64,000 nucleotides of DNA, taken from positions 35,182 through 99,181 of IMG/VR virus record IMGVR_UViG_3300050821_001343; one strand, 5' to 3'. The translations under genes and the position numbers were made by a program. Positions 6,398-18,472 of this stretch are shown in pieces; position 1 is the stretch's first letter; each line of letters begins with the position of its first letter. Under the pieces are notes generated by a model, which was not told where the DNA came from, did not search any database, and worked only from the letters and a program-made list of their open reading frames with translations. Origin of the DNA: a virus.

Positions 6398-9223
6398 ATG
6401 GCAGACCCACAGACACCGAATACAGGAATATCGAACCCACCTAATGGTGGAGCGGTAACGGATGTAGCACTTCCAGATTCAAATGAATCGACCGTTTCGC
6501 AAGCATCTGCGCCCAATCAACCTGCACAACAGACACCGCAGGCAGCACCGGCTGCTAGTGCATCGTCTTCGGCTCCCCAAGCTTCACAGCAACCGCAAAC
6601 TCCCGGTCAGTCGCAACCGGCAAGCACGCCAGCGGCTTCCGGTCAGACGCCCGATTTGTCGAAACCAACGCCACAGCAAGCGGCTGCGCAAGTGCAACAA
6701 CAGGTGAAAGATGCCAAGGTACAGAAGGCCAGCACTTTCCACGACATTGCCGAAACCCTATCTGGTGGTCCTCGTTTTACCTACACCATCGATGCTAACG
6801 GTAACACCGTTAAGACCAAAATTCCTGTAAGTAATGCTCATCTTGCACTAGCAATTGCAATGGAAGCTTTGAGCGGAGCAGCGGCAGGAGTCGGTCAAAC
6901 TGGACCCGGCGCTGTAGGCAAAGCTGCGACTGCTGGACTAAAGCAAGGACAAGATCAGACCGCGCAGATTCAAAAAGGCGATCAAGAGGCGCAGCAACAA
7001 GCACAGGGAGATTTTGCCCGTAAAGCACAGATCACTGAAACTAATATGCGTCTGTACGCCAATGCTGTCAACTTAGGGCGCATGAGTGTAGAAGATCAGG
7101 ACAACTATATTAAATCAGTTGCTCCCGTCGCTACTAAGTTGCAGCAAGAACTTCCCGGCTTCCTGAAAGAAGTAGTCGGATACAAAGGGCTGTCTCAATA
7201 CAATGTCACTGAGAATACAGCACTACCTTACCGCCGTGTCGCCAGAATTGGTGCAGACGGTCAGCAGGCTGTAGACAAGAACGGAGTTCCGCAGTGGGAC
7301 ATGGATTATCTGATCCTTGATCCAAAGTTCAAGGTTTCTGGTTTATTCACACCGGAGATTAAGAAGGCGTTCAAAGAACAAGGACTCCCTTGGGCCGATA
7401 ATCCAAACATCGACAATACTCCGATGAACGCGTACACTGCTCTGAATCTCATTTCCCGCGCATCACAGTGGAATGTAGCTAAGGGTTATGTCAGTAACTT
7501 CTTTGACACAGTAGACAAAGCCACGAAGGAAGGTTCCGCGCCGAAGAACGCCGTGGATATGACTACTGCCGGATCACTTACGGCTCCTCCGATCAAGGAC
7601 AAGCAGATTTCAGGACTAGTTGACGCCGCTTCGAATAAGTACGCCTCACAGGTATCCGACATTGTATCACCTGATAACTTTAGAGCGATCATTCATGGAA
7701 TCGTCAATCAGGAACACGGGCTTCATGGAGAAGTAAGTTCTAAAGGCGCTCAAGGTCCAATGCAGCTAATGCCCGGTACGGCTACGGCGTTAGGTGTACA
7801 CAATATAAACGATCCCGCTGAGAATGTGGACGCGGGTACAAAGTATTTCACTCAGCTTTTGAAGAAATACAAGTCGCTCCCCAACGCATTAGCCGCCTAT
7901 AATGCCGGTCCCGGAAACGTAGACAAAGCAAACGGCGTGCCGAACATCCCCGAGACAAAAGGGTATGTTGCGAACATTAGCAAGATGCTTGGCATTTCAT
8001 CTGAGGACAACGCAGCACAGACTCCTAATCGTCCCGATATGGCGCAGTTTACGCAGTCCAACCCGACCTTTCCATCAGCGGTAGAGAAATTCAATGCATC
8101 TCTTGCCCACACAGATGGAAGCTATGGAGCCGCATTAAAGGACATGGAAGCCAAAGGATTCACAGATGATGTGAAAACAATGTCTGCATTCTTCAACAGT
8201 GACGGGAAAGACAATATCAAGGCTCATGATGATTATGTAAACACACAGGCCGAGATACGCAAGTCTGACATACAAACCCAAGCTATCGAAGACCGTGCGG
8301 CTAACAAAACAGCACAGGATTCTTTAGCTCAGAAGCAGGTACAAGATCAACTTGACTCTTTTCAAAGAGCTAAGATGCCTGATAATGCCTTGCAACTTTC
8401 ACCTAACGATTTGATTGCCAATTTAAAGGGTCAAGGAGTAACAGTTCCGTTTCAAGTTATAAGTGATGCCCAAAAGGTAGCTCGTTATGAGTTACCACTT
8501 AGTGTTGCTTCCAACAAGCTGTGGTTCAAAGACAAGAATGCGAACCAATCAGCTTTGGCAGCTTTGGCTACACAGCTTAATCCTGAATTTAATGCCGGTA
8601 ACTACGACAAACTCAAAGCAACGGAGATGCCGAACGGTAAAGCAATTAGAACTGTAGAGTCAGCCGCCGCTGTGTCAAATCACTTAAACGATTTGATGGA
8701 TTTGTCTAACTCGATTAAGTCAGGAAGAACGAACTATCCTCTATTGAACAAACTTGAGGGAGAACTTCAAACACACACTGGTGGAAGTGACTATCTAAGA
8801 CTACAATCTTTGACAGGCGCTATCAACGGAGAAATGGGACCCGTTCTCGCAGGCGGTTACGCCCCTCATGAAGCAGAAATCAACGGGCTAATTAAGAACA
8901 TGAATGCTAACAACGCGGACGATCAGATTCAGCAATTAGGTAAACTTTACACCGAAATTATGTACGGTAAAGTAGCCCCGTTTGATGAAGAGTATAATGA
9001 ACTGTCCGGCTCAGGGGATAAGCATTTGACGATTCCAGCTTCGTTTACTAGACTGGCACAACGAAATGGATATGATACCCCGTGGGAGAAAAAGCTTCCT
9101 CAGCAAAATCAACAGTTACCCGGTCAGCGGCCAAATGAGATACCACAGTATTTGAATGGTAAGTTGGTCGGATACACTCTACCCGGCAAAACAGGCATGA
9201 GGCCGGTAACACCACAACAATAA
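6398..9223 (+). CDS. Internal virion protein with soluble lytic transglycosylase (SLT) domain
   Basis: SLT motifs QEHG...SSKGAQGPMQLMPGTA...NVDAGTKY...LAAYNAGPGNV...ETKGYV. Confidence 0.8.
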   Translation: MADPQTPNTGISNPPNGGAVTDVALPDSNESTVSQASAPNQPAQQTPQAAPAASASSSAPQASQQPQTPGQSQPASTPAASGQTPDLSKPTPQQAAAQVQQQVKDAKVQKASTFHDIAETLSGGPRFTYTIDANGNTVKTKIPVSNAHLALAIAMEALSGAAAGVGQTGPGAVGKAATAGLKQGQDQTAQIQKGDQEAQQQAQGDFARKAQITETNMRLYANAVNLGRMSVEDQDNYIKSVAPVATKLQQELPGFLKEVVGYKGLSQYNVTENTALPYRRVARIGADGQQAVDKNGVPQWDMDYLILDPKFKVSGLFTPEIKKAFKEQGLPWADNPNIDNTPMNAYTALNLISRASQWNVAKGYVSNFFDTVDKATKEGSAPKNAVDMTTAGSLTAPPIKDKQISGLVDAASNKYASQVSDIVSPDNFRAIIHGIVNQEHGLHGEVSSKGAQGPMQLMPGTATALGVHNINDPAENVDAGTKYFTQLLKKYKSLPNALAAYNAGPGNVDKANGVPNIPETKGYVANISKMLGISSEDNAAQTPNRPDMAQFTQSNPTFPSAVEKFNASLAHTDGSYGAALKDMEAKGFTDDVKTMSAFFNSDGKDNIKAHDDYVNTQAEIRKSDIQTQAIEDRAANKTAQDSLAQKQVQDQLDSFQRAKMPDNALQLSPNDLIANLKGQGVTVPFQVISDAQKVARYELPLSVASNKLWFKDKNANQSALAALATQLNPEFNAGNYDKLKATEMPNGKAIRTVESAAAVSNHLNDLMDLSNSIKSGRTNYPLLNKLEGELQTHTGGSDYLRLQSLTGAINGEMGPVLAGGYAPHEAEINGLIKNMNANNADDQIQQLGKLYTEIMYGKVAPFDEEYNELSGSGDKHLTIPASFTRLAQRNGYDTPWEKKLPQQNQQLPGQRPNEIPQYLNGKLVGYTLPGKTGMRPVTPQQ

Positions 9224-14348: not shown

Positions 14349-14483
14349 TGTCGAAACTAAGCAAGCCAATCTCAGGTGATCCACTCCCCATGAAGGAAAA
14401 GAAAGAAGACGGCGGTTGGTCGCAGTTCGAAGCGTGGGCGGGACAGGAATGGTTTGGAGGAGACAATCCGTACAAGGAGCGTT

Positions 14484-15257
14484 ATGGCAGCAGCAACACC
14501 GTCAACACCACCAACATCAGTAATACCCCCAGTAAGTTCCCTAAGCCAAGTGGAAAGCGCAGCAACTAGTTGGTTTAAGACACACGAGACATTACTGATC
14601 GTGTTCATGTCCTTAATCGTAGGGACATTTCTGGTTTACAAAGGACTGGATATTGTATCCAGTTACGAGAATCACAAAGCCCAACAAGCCATCGCGGTCG
14701 TGCAGGCACAGAGCAATCAGAATGCTGCTGATTTGACCACAGTGAAACAAACACTTGCTGCCTATCAAACGGCTCTTGCGAACGCTACCACGGCCAATCA
14801 GACGTTAGCACAGGCTGTGACAGCACGTAACACAGTTGTAGTCAAGCAAGAATCGACCGACGCCACTCTTCCTCAGTCCGCATTAGGGCAGAGATGGGAA
14901 ACATTGGTAAACGATACGGGTGTGACTCCAACTCCTACTGGATTTGCGGTCCCGGAGAAAGCAGCCCTCGATACGGTACAATCTCTTGAGCAAGTTCCGG
15001 TTTTGACGCAGGATGTGAAAGACGCTCAGGCTCAGACGGCCAATGATCAAATCGCACTGACGCAGGCTAACAATGTAATAGATCAAGGAAAAACTTTGGT
15101 AACCGGCCTACAAAATCAGTTGACAGATGAGACGAAATCGTGTAGTATTCAATTATCGGCTGCAAAGGCAGCAGCGAATAAGGGCAAATTCAAATGGTTC
15201 GGTATCGGATACGTTTCTGGATTCGTTAGCGGACTAGTGGTAGCGATTGTAAAGTAG
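14484..15257 (+). CDS. Spanin-like coiled-coil membrane protein
   Basis: N- and C-terminal TM segments around a long coiled coil; AAGGAG RBS before ATG 14484. Confidence 0.4.
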   Translation: MAAATPSTPPTSVIPPVSSLSQVESAATSWFKTHETLLIVFMSLIVGTFLVYKGLDIVSSYENHKAQQAIAVVQAQSNQNAADLTTVKQTLAAYQTALANATTANQTLAQAVTARNTVVVKQESTDATLPQSALGQRWETLVNDTGVTPTPTGFAVPEKAALDTVQSLEQVPVLTQDVKDAQAQTANDQIALTQANNVIDQGKTLVTGLQNQLTDETKSCSIQLSAAKAAANKGKFKWFGIGYVSGFVSGLVVAIVK

Positions 15258-15258
15258 T

Positions 15259-15334
15259 GGGCCAGTAGCTCAATTGGGAGAGCAATCCCCTTGCACGGGA
15301 TAGGTTGCAGGTTCGATGCCTGTCAGGTCCACCA
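15259..15334 (+). tRNA. tRNA-Ala(TGC)
   Basis: Cloverleaf, anticodon loop CTTGCAC, G3:U70 pair, encoded CCA. Confidence 0.92.
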
Positions 15335-15546: not shown

Positions 15547-15723
15547 ATGGACGCAGCACGCGAGGAAGCACGGGCAGCACGAATTGAGCAGCGCCGAATC
15601 CTTGGGGACTACTACCGGGAGCTATCGGTCAACTATTTGGACTATGAGGTTCTAGCAAAAACCATTGGGCCAACTCTGGCATTTCCAGCGCGTCCAAATA
15701 TTCCAGAATACGAGAACGCTTAA
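15547..15723 (+). CDS. Hypothetical protein (58 aa)
   Basis: ATG 15547 to TAA 15723, MDAAREEARAAR...; below the ORF track threshold. Confidence 0.5.
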   Translation: MDAAREEARAARIEQRRILGDYYRELSVNYLDYEVLAKTIGPTLAFPARPNIPEYENA

Positions 15724-15918
15724 GGAAAATATGCGATCTACAACTTATTGTCGTAAACTAGAAGATGGAAGTGGCTTTGTCATTGTAAGAACCATTTTCA
15801 AGAGGTATAAGAATTTTAATACTCCTTCCTATATCGACCAGCAATGGGAAGAAGCTTTAGCGACGGGTACGACGAAAGACGAAGCATGGTCAAATTACCG
15901 TCTAAAGGTTTGAATTGT

Positions 15919-15992
15919 ATCGGGTTCGTTTAGTGGCAGGACGGCAGGCTTTGACCCTGCTCGCTGAGGTTCGATTCCTTGCCCCGGTGCCA
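15919..15992 (+). tRNA. tRNA-Gln(TTG)
   Basis: Anticodon arm GCAGG-CTTTGAC-CCTGC, TTCGATT T-loop, CCA. Confidence 0.88.
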
Positions 15993-16005
15993 AGATTGGA
16001 GAGAA

Positions 16006-16386
16006 ATGAAGAGACTGGCAGTATTTCTTATCGTATTGGTAACAATGTGTCTGCCCGATCTTGGCGGTCATCTTAACTGGTACGCTGAAAAACAGAATGC
16101 AGGATTCATGCCAGTATGGTGCTATGATACAGGCATGAAGATGTCGGTCGATGAAGATTCACGCCATGTGGAATTAACCAAATCGAGCAAGGTCCCATAT
16201 CTGTCCGATATTTTCCCCATGTATGTGTATTCATTTGAGGATAGCAAATTCGAATTAGATGGAGTAATGAGCATAGGCGATCTACTTCTATGGAGTGGCT
16301 ACGTCGGTTTCTTTTTCTCCCTGTTCTATTTGTTGGTGCTTTTGTTGGATGATTTGGTGACAGTTCTTTGCAGGTTTAGACATTGA
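16006..16386 (+). CDS. DUF5317-like membrane protein
   Basis: LN......N.G.MPV ... LSD ... SIGD motifs, hydrophobic segments, GGAG RBS. Confidence 0.6.
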   Translation: MKRLAVFLIVLVTMCLPDLGGHLNWYAEKQNAGFMPVWCYDTGMKMSVDEDSRHVELTKSSKVPYLSDIFPMYVYSFEDSKFELDGVMSIGDLLLWSGYVGFFFSLFYLLVLLLDDLVTVLCRFRH

Positions 16387-16463
16387 GCGGGATTGTTTTG
16401 TAATGGTAGCATATCGGTCTTCCAAACCGTAAGGTATAGGTTCAAATCCGGTATCCCGCTCCA
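16387..16463 (+). tRNA. tRNA-Gly(TCC), somewhat degenerate
   Basis: GCGGGAT/ATCCCGC acceptor, U73, loop CTTCCAA; imperfect D and T stems. Confidence 0.78.
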
Positions 16464-17364: not shown

Positions 17365-17441
17365 GCCACGGTAGCTCAGTTGGTTAGAGCGGCAGTTTTG
17401 TAAACTGCGGGTCGGGAGTTCGAATCTCTCCCGTGGCTCCA
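17365..17441 (+). tRNA. tRNA-Thr(TGT)
   Basis: Canonical cloverleaf, loop TTTGTAA, CCA. Confidence 0.95.
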
Positions 17442-17511
17442 TATTCCTACACCTTAGATGCATTCACTATTAGGTGTTTGTATGACAACGGAATGCTAAA
17501 TTGGAGGCAGT

Positions 17512-17847
17512 ATGGCGAAGCAGTTATTGTTTTCTCTTACTGCCAAGGATTTTGATTTTCAATACTTCACTGTGAGTGGTCACGGAGGGTCTGGAAAAGA
17601 TACATCCAACACAGGTGCACGGTGCATTCATCGTGCGTCCGGTGCGACCGGAGAAGGCCGAGAAGAACGTAGTCAACTCAAGAACAGACAAAGCGCATTC
17701 GGTAAGTGTGTAAAATCCAAAAAGTTTCAGGCATGGCACAAATTAGAAACTATGCGTCGTCTAGGGCTACTCAAAGACATTGAGAGTCGAGTTGATGAGC
17801 AAATGAAAGACAAGAACTTAAAGATTGAATACATCACAGGAGATTAA
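17512..17847 (+). CDS. Class I peptide chain release factor domain protein (ArfB/PrfH-like), GGS variant
   Basis: SGHGGSGKDTSNTGARCIH..SG......ERSQLKNRQSA matches the RF domain 3 pattern; GGQ is replaced by GGS (gga ggg tct). Confidence 0.8.
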   Translation: MAKQLLFSLTAKDFDFQYFTVSGHGGSGKDTSNTGARCIHRASGATGEGREERSQLKNRQSAFGKCVKSKKFQAWHKLETMRRLGLLKDIESRVDEQMKDKNLKIEYITGD

Positions 17848-17911
17848 GCTAGAGGGAAACTGACCGGCTCCAACCCGGTACTCAGAGGTTCAAATCCTCT
17901 ATCTCCTGCCA
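17838..17911 (+). tRNA. tRNA-Trp(CCA)
   Basis: AGGAGAT/ATCTCCT acceptor, G73, ACCGG-CTCCAAC-CCGGT, AGAGG-TTCAAAT-CCTCT, CCA; overlaps the last 10 nt of the RF-like ORF. Confidence 0.88.
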
Positions 17912-17925
17912 ATTTTAGAGGCACC

Positions 17926-18372
17926 ATGCAACTAAGCGATCAAGGGGCAGCATTTATTGCTAGCTTTGAAGGTATCAAGCTTGTACCGTATAACGATTCA
18001 AATGGATGGGCAACAGTCGGCATTGGACATTTGATCCGTAAAGGTCCGGTACTACCAACTGACCTACCGATCACACTGGCGCAAGCCTATGACTTATTCC
18101 GGCAGGATGCAAAAATTGAAATCTCTATCATTGGCATCTACGTTAAGGTTCCAATCAATCAGAATCAATTTGATGCCCTCTGCTCTCTTTCCTACAACAT
18201 CGGTGTCGGCAACTTTATGCGATCACCGATCCCATCCCTCATCAACAGCGGCCAGTTAGATCAAGTCCCCGCTGCGTTTCTCATCCACAACAAGGATGCT
18301 AAAGGCAACATCCTACGCGGCTTGACTCGTAGACGTGAGGCCGAAGTTGCAGTATTCAACAAACTAAGCTAA
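17926..18372 (+). CDS. Endolysin, GH24 phage lysozyme
   Basis: FEG...Y.D..G..T.GIGH catalytic E-D-T, QNQFDAL.S..YNIG, GLTRRREAE. Confidence 0.92.
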   Translation: MQLSDQGAAFIASFEGIKLVPYNDSNGWATVGIGHLIRKGPVLPTDLPITLAQAYDLFRQDAKIEISIIGIYVKVPINQNQFDALCSLSYNIGVGNFMRSPIPSLINSGQLDQVPAAFLIHNKDAKGNILRGLTRRREAEVAVFNKLS

Positions 18373-18400: not shown

Positions 18401-18428
18401 CCGGGTGCCTAAAAAGCACCCGGCTTTT
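18401..18428 (+). terminator. Intrinsic terminator
   Basis: CCGGGTGC/GCACCCGG stem followed by CTTTT. Confidence 0.6.
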
Positions 18429-18472
18429 CGTGTCTTTGTGGCACGTTGTATCAATTACCATCGGAGAAAGAA

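Follow-up and report, generated by a model that had tools for sequence, protein, structure and literature searches.

A phage release-factor-like gene that ends inside a tRNA-Trp gene, in a compact array of tRNAs and ORFs

The ribosome-rescue factors ArfA and BrfA are both made from non-stop mRNAs, that of ArfA being cut by RNase III and that of BrfA ending at a terminator placed before the stop codon. ArfB/YaeJ combines, in one small protein, the catalytic domain of a release factor and a basic tail that probes the empty mRNA channel. In mitochondria, ORFs are butted against tRNAs, some of them without a complete stop codon, so that the ends of mRNAs are set by tRNA processing, and short proteins of the GGQ family (ICT1, C12orf65/mtRF-R) are found. 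An earlier note on the phage DNA analyzed here had proposed a counterpart of the ArfA and BrfA circuits, in which maturation of a tRNA-Trp by RNase P removes the stop codon from the mRNA of a release-factor-like (RF-like) gene, and thereby couples the level of this factor to tRNA processing and tmRNA capacity. Here we describe the joint between the two genes, the protein, its homologs, and the ORF-to-tRNA joints of unrelated genes.

The analyzed stretch, referred to as the window herein, makes up the right-hand 64 kb of a virus record that is complete at 99,181 bp and has direct terminal repeats. Its nearest cultured relatives are Tunturi_4 and Tunturi_3, phages of Tunturiibacter (Acidobacteriota). 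Between positions 15259 and 17911, ARAGORN and Rfam placed seven tRNA genes, all co-directional and with ORFs interspersed. The locus itself is very tightly packed and reads, on one strand, tRNA-Thr, RF-like gene, tRNA-Trp, endolysin, and terminator (Table 1). The terminator-like hairpin likely marks the end of the transcript that holds the two tRNAs, the RF-like gene, and the lysozyme gene, as judged from its consensus.

Table 1. Features of the locus, other ORF-to-tRNA joints of the genome, and related loci. Positions without a prefix are those of the window.
Feature	Position	Strand	Basis or remark
tRNA-Thr(UGU)	17365..17441	+	ARAGORN; Rfam tRNA 69.9 bits; upstream neighbor, same array
GGAGG, Shine-Dalgarno-like	17503..17507	+	4 nt before ATG; read from the sequence
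RF-like ORF, 111 aa, stand-alone release-factor domain 3 (GGQ domain), phrog_3122	17512..17847	+	PHROG, Pfam, homologs
GGS for catalytic GGQ (gga ggg tct)	17584..17592	+	residues 25-27; sequence and homolog alignment
tRNA-Trp(CCA)	17838..17911	+	ARAGORN; Rfam; A1-U72, discriminator G, encoded CCA
10-nt ORF/tRNA-Trp overlap	17838..17847	+	last base of Thr109 codon, Gly110, Asp111, TAA
Endolysin (Phage_lysozyme)	17926..18372	+	Pfam PF00959, E 4e-31; start 14 nt past tRNA-Trp
Terminator-like hairpin and T-run	18401..18433	+	consensus scan only
267-aa ORF	14454..15257	+	ends 1 nt before tRNA-Ala (15259-15334)
82-aa ORF	15665..15913	+	ends 5 nt before tRNA-Gln (15919-15992)
135-aa ORF	15979..16386	+	ends 0 nt before tRNA-Gly (16387-16463)
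93-aa ORF into tRNA-Met(CAU)	genome 5358-5381		overlap
174-aa ORF			ends 4 nt before tRNA-His
74-aa ORF			ends 6 nt before tRNA-Asn
Permuted tmRNA of this phage (L171)	genome G000 7321-7621	-	27.5 kb before the window
Permuted tmRNA of Tunturi_4	L001:2832-3241		Rfam 79.2 bits
Bridging contig, X2 record 15	17555-18100		spans the RF-like/tRNA-Trp joint
Bridging contig, X1 record 6	17801-18007		spans the RF-like/tRNA-Trp joint
Sister-clade split site	L160:1850-1890; L165:2144-2184; L220:1880-1920		
RF-like gene of L039	L039:708-1257		between tRNA-Gly and tRNA-Trp
tRNA-Gly(UCC) of L005	L005:3367-3441		27.2 bits; Rfam cut-off 29
Stop inside tRNA-Trp, this phage			10 nt
Stop inside tRNA-Trp, L039			22 nt
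Stop inside tRNA-Arg, L008/L251			15 nt
Stop inside tRNA-Gly, L247/L297			15 nt
Stop inside tRNA-Leu, L131			10 nt
Stop inside tRNA-Thr, L232/L260			27 nt
Stop inside tRNA-Ser, L024/L192			1 nt
Stop before tRNA-Gly, L005			gap 0
Stop before tRNA-Leu, L096			gap 1 nt
Stop before tRNA-Pro, L276			gap 4 nt
Stop before tRNA-Thr, L253			gap 5 nt
Stop before tRNA-Ile, L184			gap 6 nt

The last codons of the RF-like ORF are ATC ACA GGA GAT TAA, and its TAA (17845-17847) occupies positions 8-10 of tRNA-Trp, so the stop codon does lie inside the tRNA, as the earlier note had read from the letters. The third base of the Thr codon ACA, A17838, doubles as the +1 base of the tRNA. ARAGORN and Rfam both confirmed the tRNA, with the Rfam tRNA model aligning from 17838 to 17908 (model positions 1-71) at 51.2 bits, where the gathering score is 29. 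Its acceptor stem, anticodon arm, and T-arm are intact and the CCA is encoded, while the D-arm holds two non-standard pairs in the Rfam alignment. By established biochemistry, RNase P cleavage at +1 would cut the stop codon off the message, in line with the earlier note. Contigs from two further public soil runs span the joint with identical sequence, so it was not created by the assembly of this record. Two additional contigs of 1427 and 982 nt, from the same two soil runs, match only across the tRNA-Trp stretch (17835-17912) and with 12 differences; judging from this pattern, they carry a related tRNA-Trp of another phage or of the host.

Close homologs of the RF-like protein end in ...NLK[IV]EY-x, and the window protein has the residues TGD beyond that end. 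This implies that TGD is a non-conserved add-on supplied by the tRNA. The conserved core of the protein stops exactly where tRNA-Trp starts, and a product cut at 17837 would end in ...KIEYI, which is the native length of the close homologs. Given the phrog_3122 and Pfam RF-1 matches described below, the 113 homologs, and the GGAGG in front of the start codon, the ORF is a real gene.

The designation as RF-like, proposed earlier from the letters, was borne out by profile and structure comparisons. The window protein matched phrog_3122, 'RF-1 domain peptide chain release factor', with E 2.5e-19, and Pfam RF-1 (PF00472) with E 1.5e-6 and 28.6 bits, which is under the 35-bit cut-off. The window protein has 113 homologs in the protein collection searched, and the proteins of Tunturi_4 and Tunturi_3 are 55% and 48% identical to the window protein. 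When a family profile built from 46 homologs was compared with known structures, its best-supported fit was to the third domain of RF1/RF2, as seen in ribosome-bound structures, with E ~1e-13. Only domain 3 aligned (profile positions 11-84), and the codon-recognition domains 2 and 4 of RF1/RF2 (PxT/SPF) are absent from the 111-aa protein. The same profile matched mitochondrial C12orf65/mtRF-R over positions 5-109, nearly the whole length, with E 3e-8, and it also matched PrfH. The match to ArfB covered positions 14-38 only, around the GG motif, with E ~4e-3, and neither the profile comparison nor the model revealed a recognizable basic C-terminal tail of the ArfB/ICT1 type in the window protein. 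The AlphaFold model (pLDDT 86) consists of three strands followed by three helices, the modeled C-terminal helices spanning residues 55-68, 70-84, and 88-97 with the conserved end ...NLKIEY, and its Foldseek matches are release factors. In sequence and predicted fold, the window protein is a release-factor GGQ-domain protein.

In place of the catalytic Gly-Gly-Gln, the window protein has GGS. Among the 113 homologs, the third residue of this tripeptide is Q in 49, S in 42, G in 14, and A in 5. About half of the family thus lacks the Gln, and by this alignment the GGS of the window protein is no private defect. Homologs that do not have Q share a conserved GG[SGA]GKDTSNTG motif, so these forms are being maintained by selection rather than decaying, and the window protein keeps the 12 invariant residues of the family. 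Release factors with the Gln replaced retain part of their activity in vitro. The Foldseek matches of the model include PDB 9mtr, a complex of a GGS-mutant release factor. A literature search turned up no work on this family of phage RF-1-domain proteins or on its function.

To compare the joint across the family, we measured the distance from the stop codon to the next same-strand tRNA in 323 loci from IMG/VR, metagenomes, and GenBank phages, which comprise 200 distinct homologs. The stop lies inside a tRNA in 7 of the 200, with six tRNA species represented, and 0-6 nt before a tRNA in another 5, where the tRNA calls vary with ARAGORN thresholds and loci of one metagenome campaign may be related. 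One split gene (L160) ends 2 nt before tRNA-Gly. In about 93% of the homologs, the gene supplies its own stop and no tRNA adjoins its end, the mycobacteriophage copies have an ordinary stop with protein genes next, and a tRNA occurs within 2 kb of 51 of 164 distinct RF-like genes. The earlier note had made the presence of the overlap in close homologs a test of its proposal, and we found it largely absent: the closest relatives with known context, L005, L091, and L096 (63%, 65%, and 61% identity, against 78% and 72% for the two closest homologs overall, P0002 and P0003), keep their own stops. With 7 of 200 homologs ending in a tRNA and these relatives keeping their stops, we rejected a conserved ArfA-type processing site. 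A BrfA-like route was ruled out for the family as well, since a scan of the 3′ regions of 161 homologs showed no terminator ahead of the stop codon.

In the 98.6-kb phage of locus L005, the gene occupies another place in the array, flanked by tRNA-Asp and a weak tRNA-Gly(UCC), with its own TAA directly before the latter and a protein tail 15 residues longer. In the same phage, tRNA-Thr and tRNA-Trp are adjacent, with no gene between them. This arrangement, with its own TAA and adjacent Thr and Trp tRNAs, points to the joint of the RF-like gene and tRNA-Trp in the window as the derived state. The tRNA-Gly(UCC) of L005 has an unusual T-loop, UGCAACU, scores below the Rfam cut-off, and is missed by ARAGORN at default settings, which implies that phage tRNA counts made at default settings are too low. 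A distant homolog with 49% identity, L039, runs into tRNA-Trp in the same frame as the window gene. In that 53-kb IMG/VR phage, the gene is wedged between two tRNAs, and the preceding tRNA-Gly ends 3 nt before the likely ATG, so that any ribosome-binding site sits inside tRNA-Gly.

Unrelated ORFs beside tRNAs provided the background for these figures. This genome has 10 ORF-to-tRNA joints, counting each tRNA that has an ORF rather than another tRNA in front of it, with gaps of +6, +1, +5, 0, +185, -10, +98, +4, -24, and +62 nt; seven of them are at most 6 nt, and two overlap, namely the RF-like gene into tRNA-Trp by 10 nt and the 93-aa ORF into tRNA-Met by 24 nt. PHROG profiles align up to their last position with the 174-aa ORF in front of tRNA-His, which is thus a real gene. 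As a control, we took the non-RF ORFs of at least 80 aa in the 323 related loci, which are mechanical ORF calls and not curated genes. Their 115 joints divide into 23 overlaps, 40 gaps of 0-10 nt, 15 of 11-50 nt, and 37 farther, which places 63 of the 115 at 10 nt or less. Random positions treated by the same procedure fell into the 0-10 nt class in ~2% of cases, compared with 35-42% of joints, and about 20% of joints in the related loci overlap. Unrelated long ORFs (169, 186, and 199 aa) likewise have their stops in tRNAs, at depths of 15-34 nt. Overlaps of 10 and 15 nt are the most usual, as these lengths correspond to the first in-frame stops of tRNAs, notably U8-R9-R10. By gene order, the layout resembles that of tRNA-punctuated transcripts, with ORFs directly flanked by tRNAs; a literature search for CDS/tRNA overlaps in phages returned no study.

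The RF-like family itself contributed 23 joints. Of these, 8 overlap, one of them being the doubtful case of the Tunturi_4 tmRNA, and 5 have gaps of 0-6 nt. Overlaps were not significantly more frequent than among other ORFs (Fisher p = 0.12 for tight joints and 0.17 overall), nor did earlier, smaller samples ever reach significance (p = 0.07-0.49). Among tight joints, the ratio of overlap to gap is 8:5 for RF-like genes and 23:40 for other ORFs, a mild excess that a sample of this size cannot settle, and the last enlargement of the sample brought abutting cases only. A non-stop consequence of tRNA maturation that is not specific to the RF-like gene is plausible from these gene positions.

This phage also encodes a permuted (two-piece) tmRNA, which Rfam RF04321 scores at 51.8 bits (gathering score 47) and for which ARAGORN gives no call. 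Its tag frame reads ATSIYDKMIAAIPVSKDGVVRSNDLVLA. ARAGORN found permuted tmRNAs at most 2 kb from the RF-like gene in three loci, L001, L101, and L180. The first of these is Tunturi_4 (PP885687.1), in which the permuted tmRNA comes right after the RF-1-domain gene gp53 and has a tag that ends in ..NRYAVAA. Its start is placed 30 nt inside the RF-like gene by ARAGORN and 4 nt past the stop by Rfam, so the overlap is uncertain. The tmRNA carries no annotation in the PP885687.1 record. The paper that describes the Tunturi phages lists 'one tRNA (unknown)' and mentions neither the RF-like gene nor the tmRNA.

In a sister clade whose proteins are 80-93% identical to that of L005, the gene is split at one fixed site, which in L160, L165, and L220 alike reads ...GAG CAG TAT CTT TAA C AAG... 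Past this site, the +1 frame carries on the family alignment gap-free (..REQYL before it and NK[RQ]EAFRKC.. after it), and the flanks differ at many third positions. N-terminal fragments of 56-60 residues from JGI, ENA, and Logan form nine clusters (P0115-P0123), with ...Q[YH]L as their last residues. The site is like that of prfB (RF2), UAU CUU UGA C, with UAA for UGA, but unlike prfB the sister clade has no strong Shine-Dalgarno-like element upstream. The split looks like programmed +1 frameshifting, and we consider it a candidate for this mechanism. The window gene has no prfB-type site and is in frame at this point (CAA CTC AAG AAC). Our literature search found no study of frameshifting in phage RF-1-domain genes. 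The sister-clade site makes translational feedback on RF-like genes plausible in principle.

We consider it probable that the joint reflects a compact array of tRNAs and ORFs, in which a gene without its own stop borrows U8-A9-A10 of tRNA-Trp, and that it is not a dedicated switch. This reading is favored because TGD is not conserved, unrelated genes are packed alike, and relatives keep their stops. Under compaction, a genuine phage gene, of a family common in tRNA-rich phages, would have lost its own stop and would now read on to U8-A9-A10, thereby gaining the three non-conserved residues TGD. The joint would be one case of a habit of this phage group, whose ORFs of all kinds end near or inside the next tRNA. 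If the +1 base of a tRNA falls on the third base of a codon, positions 8-10 (U-R-R) would usually supply a stop, and losing the original one would thus cost little. A functional tRNA requires the RNase P cut at +1. Here, the cut between 17837 and 17838 would leave an mRNA that ends in ...AUC AC without a stop, presumably as a side effect. Ribosomes stalled at the cut end would be handed to trans-translation, and part of the protein may be made on non-stop mRNA. Conversely, on precursor not yet cut, ribosomes that travel as far as the TAA would open up the acceptor and D arms, which would delay the cut. The case of L039 speaks against compaction to the extent that a distant gene ending in tRNA-Trp in the same frame suggests that the arrangement can persist. 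To some degree, so do the mild excess of overlaps in the family, the ribosome-rescue parts that accompany it (a permuted tmRNA in this genome and beside the Tunturi_4 gene), and the frameshift-like site of the sister clade.

Several other explanations have to be weighed against compaction. A switch with the logic of ArfA and BrfA, in which RNase P strips the stop and the factor is tagged and degraded by tmRNA unless trans-translation is saturated, appears unlikely to us. The overlap is real and the truncated product would have the native length of close homologs, yet about 93% of the family has its own stop without a tRNA at the end, and the closest relatives with known context belong to this majority. 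The 7 homologs that end inside six tRNA species and the 5 that end just before a tRNA fit a switch, but overlap is no more common among RF-like genes than in unrelated neighboring ORFs (p = 0.12-0.17). The phage's own permuted tmRNA and the 79-bit tmRNA that follows the Tunturi_4 gene would provide the tagging machinery, and the prfB-type site of the sister clade would also tie expression to termination capacity. Counting against the switch, no terminator precedes the stop codon in the 161 homologs, and the window protein, with GGS rather than GGQ and no visible ArfB-like tail, is a factor by prediction. Of the earlier note, the RF-like identity and the geometry have held up; the overlap proved neither conserved among homologs nor specific to the gene, since unrelated ORFs overlap or abut tRNAs at a similar rate. 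The interpretation in the earlier note is in this sense partly supported, and what speaks for a selected ArfA-like switch is the geometry. We are similarly doubtful of a scheme for this group of soil phages in which interchangeable cis devices, namely the tRNA-internal stop in the window and six homologs and the CUU UAA C frameshift in the sister clade, would wire the level of the factor to the termination and rescue state of the host, so that the factor builds up on overload alongside the phage tmRNA.

RNase P cuts at tRNA 5′ ends could instead be a selected means of processing a polycistronic transcript, as in mitochondria, with the tmRNA and the GGQ-domain factor clearing the stalled ribosomes; many mRNAs would then finish at their stop codon or slightly ahead of it, and the RF-like gene would serve the system and would not be a regulated target. 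The enrichment of 0-10 nt gaps before tRNAs (35-42% against ~2% at random) and the ~20% of joints that overlap are consistent with such punctuation, although plain compaction also predicts zero-length spacers, since tRNA genes can do without a ribosome-binding site upstream. The tRNAs within 2 kb of 51 of 164 RF-like genes, the tmRNA in this genome and those near the gene in three other loci, and the fit of the family profile to mtRF-R over its whole length are further points in its favor. On balance, we regard selected processing as improbable. Least probable is that one partner is non-functional, with tRNA-Trp decaying or unprocessed, or the ORF untranslated, and the overlap thus without consequence. 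The two non-standard D-arm pairs and the weak tRNAs of related phages, such as the 27-bit tRNA-Gly of L005, would agree with this, but tRNA-Trp scores 51 bits with intact arms and an encoded CCA, and the ORF has a strong GGAGG and has kept the 12 invariant residues.

With compaction as the preferred explanation, the locus can be set against the systems described at the outset. Were it a switch, the overlap would add a third way of achieving the logic of ArfA and BrfA, one carried by a phage and triggered by RNase P, a prospect lowered by the finding that the overlap is not gene-specific. As with ArfA and BrfA, the cut at 17837/17838 would leave the mRNA of a rescue-type factor without a stop and with the whole conserved core kept. 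Unlike in those systems, the cut site is the 5′ end of a tRNA and is not conserved in the family, and the window product is a GGQ-domain protein and not a recruiter of RF2; regulation is hypothetical here. The likeness to mitochondria extends to ORFs butted against tRNAs, some without a complete stop, and to a short GGQ-family protein. In contrast to mitochondria, this is a bacterial phage, its stops are mostly complete, and there is no polyadenylation that completes stops. Similar to ArfB/YaeJ, the window protein is small and carries the release-factor catalytic domain on its own, whereas the basic tail is not recognizable and the C-terminal part is modeled as three helices.

The tRNA arrays of these phages have genes packed against tRNA 5′ ends, and at roughly a fifth of the joints the upstream gene has its stop codon within the tRNA, which means that tRNA maturation and upstream translation must interfere. 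The combination of a permuted tmRNA, a release-factor-domain protein with its Gln often replaced, and the apparent RF2 trick of the sister clade suggests that these phages manipulate ribosome rescue, an idea that can be tested. Taken together, a known phage family gains a further member here, set in a compact tRNA array of a known type. The phrog_3122 proteins of Tunturi_3, Tunturi_4, and many mycobacteriophages are of the same size (~110-125 aa) and likewise consist of a lone release-factor domain 3; in these annotated phages, the next feature after the gene is a CDS or a tmRNA and no tRNA overlaps it, whereas in the window it runs into tRNA-Trp.
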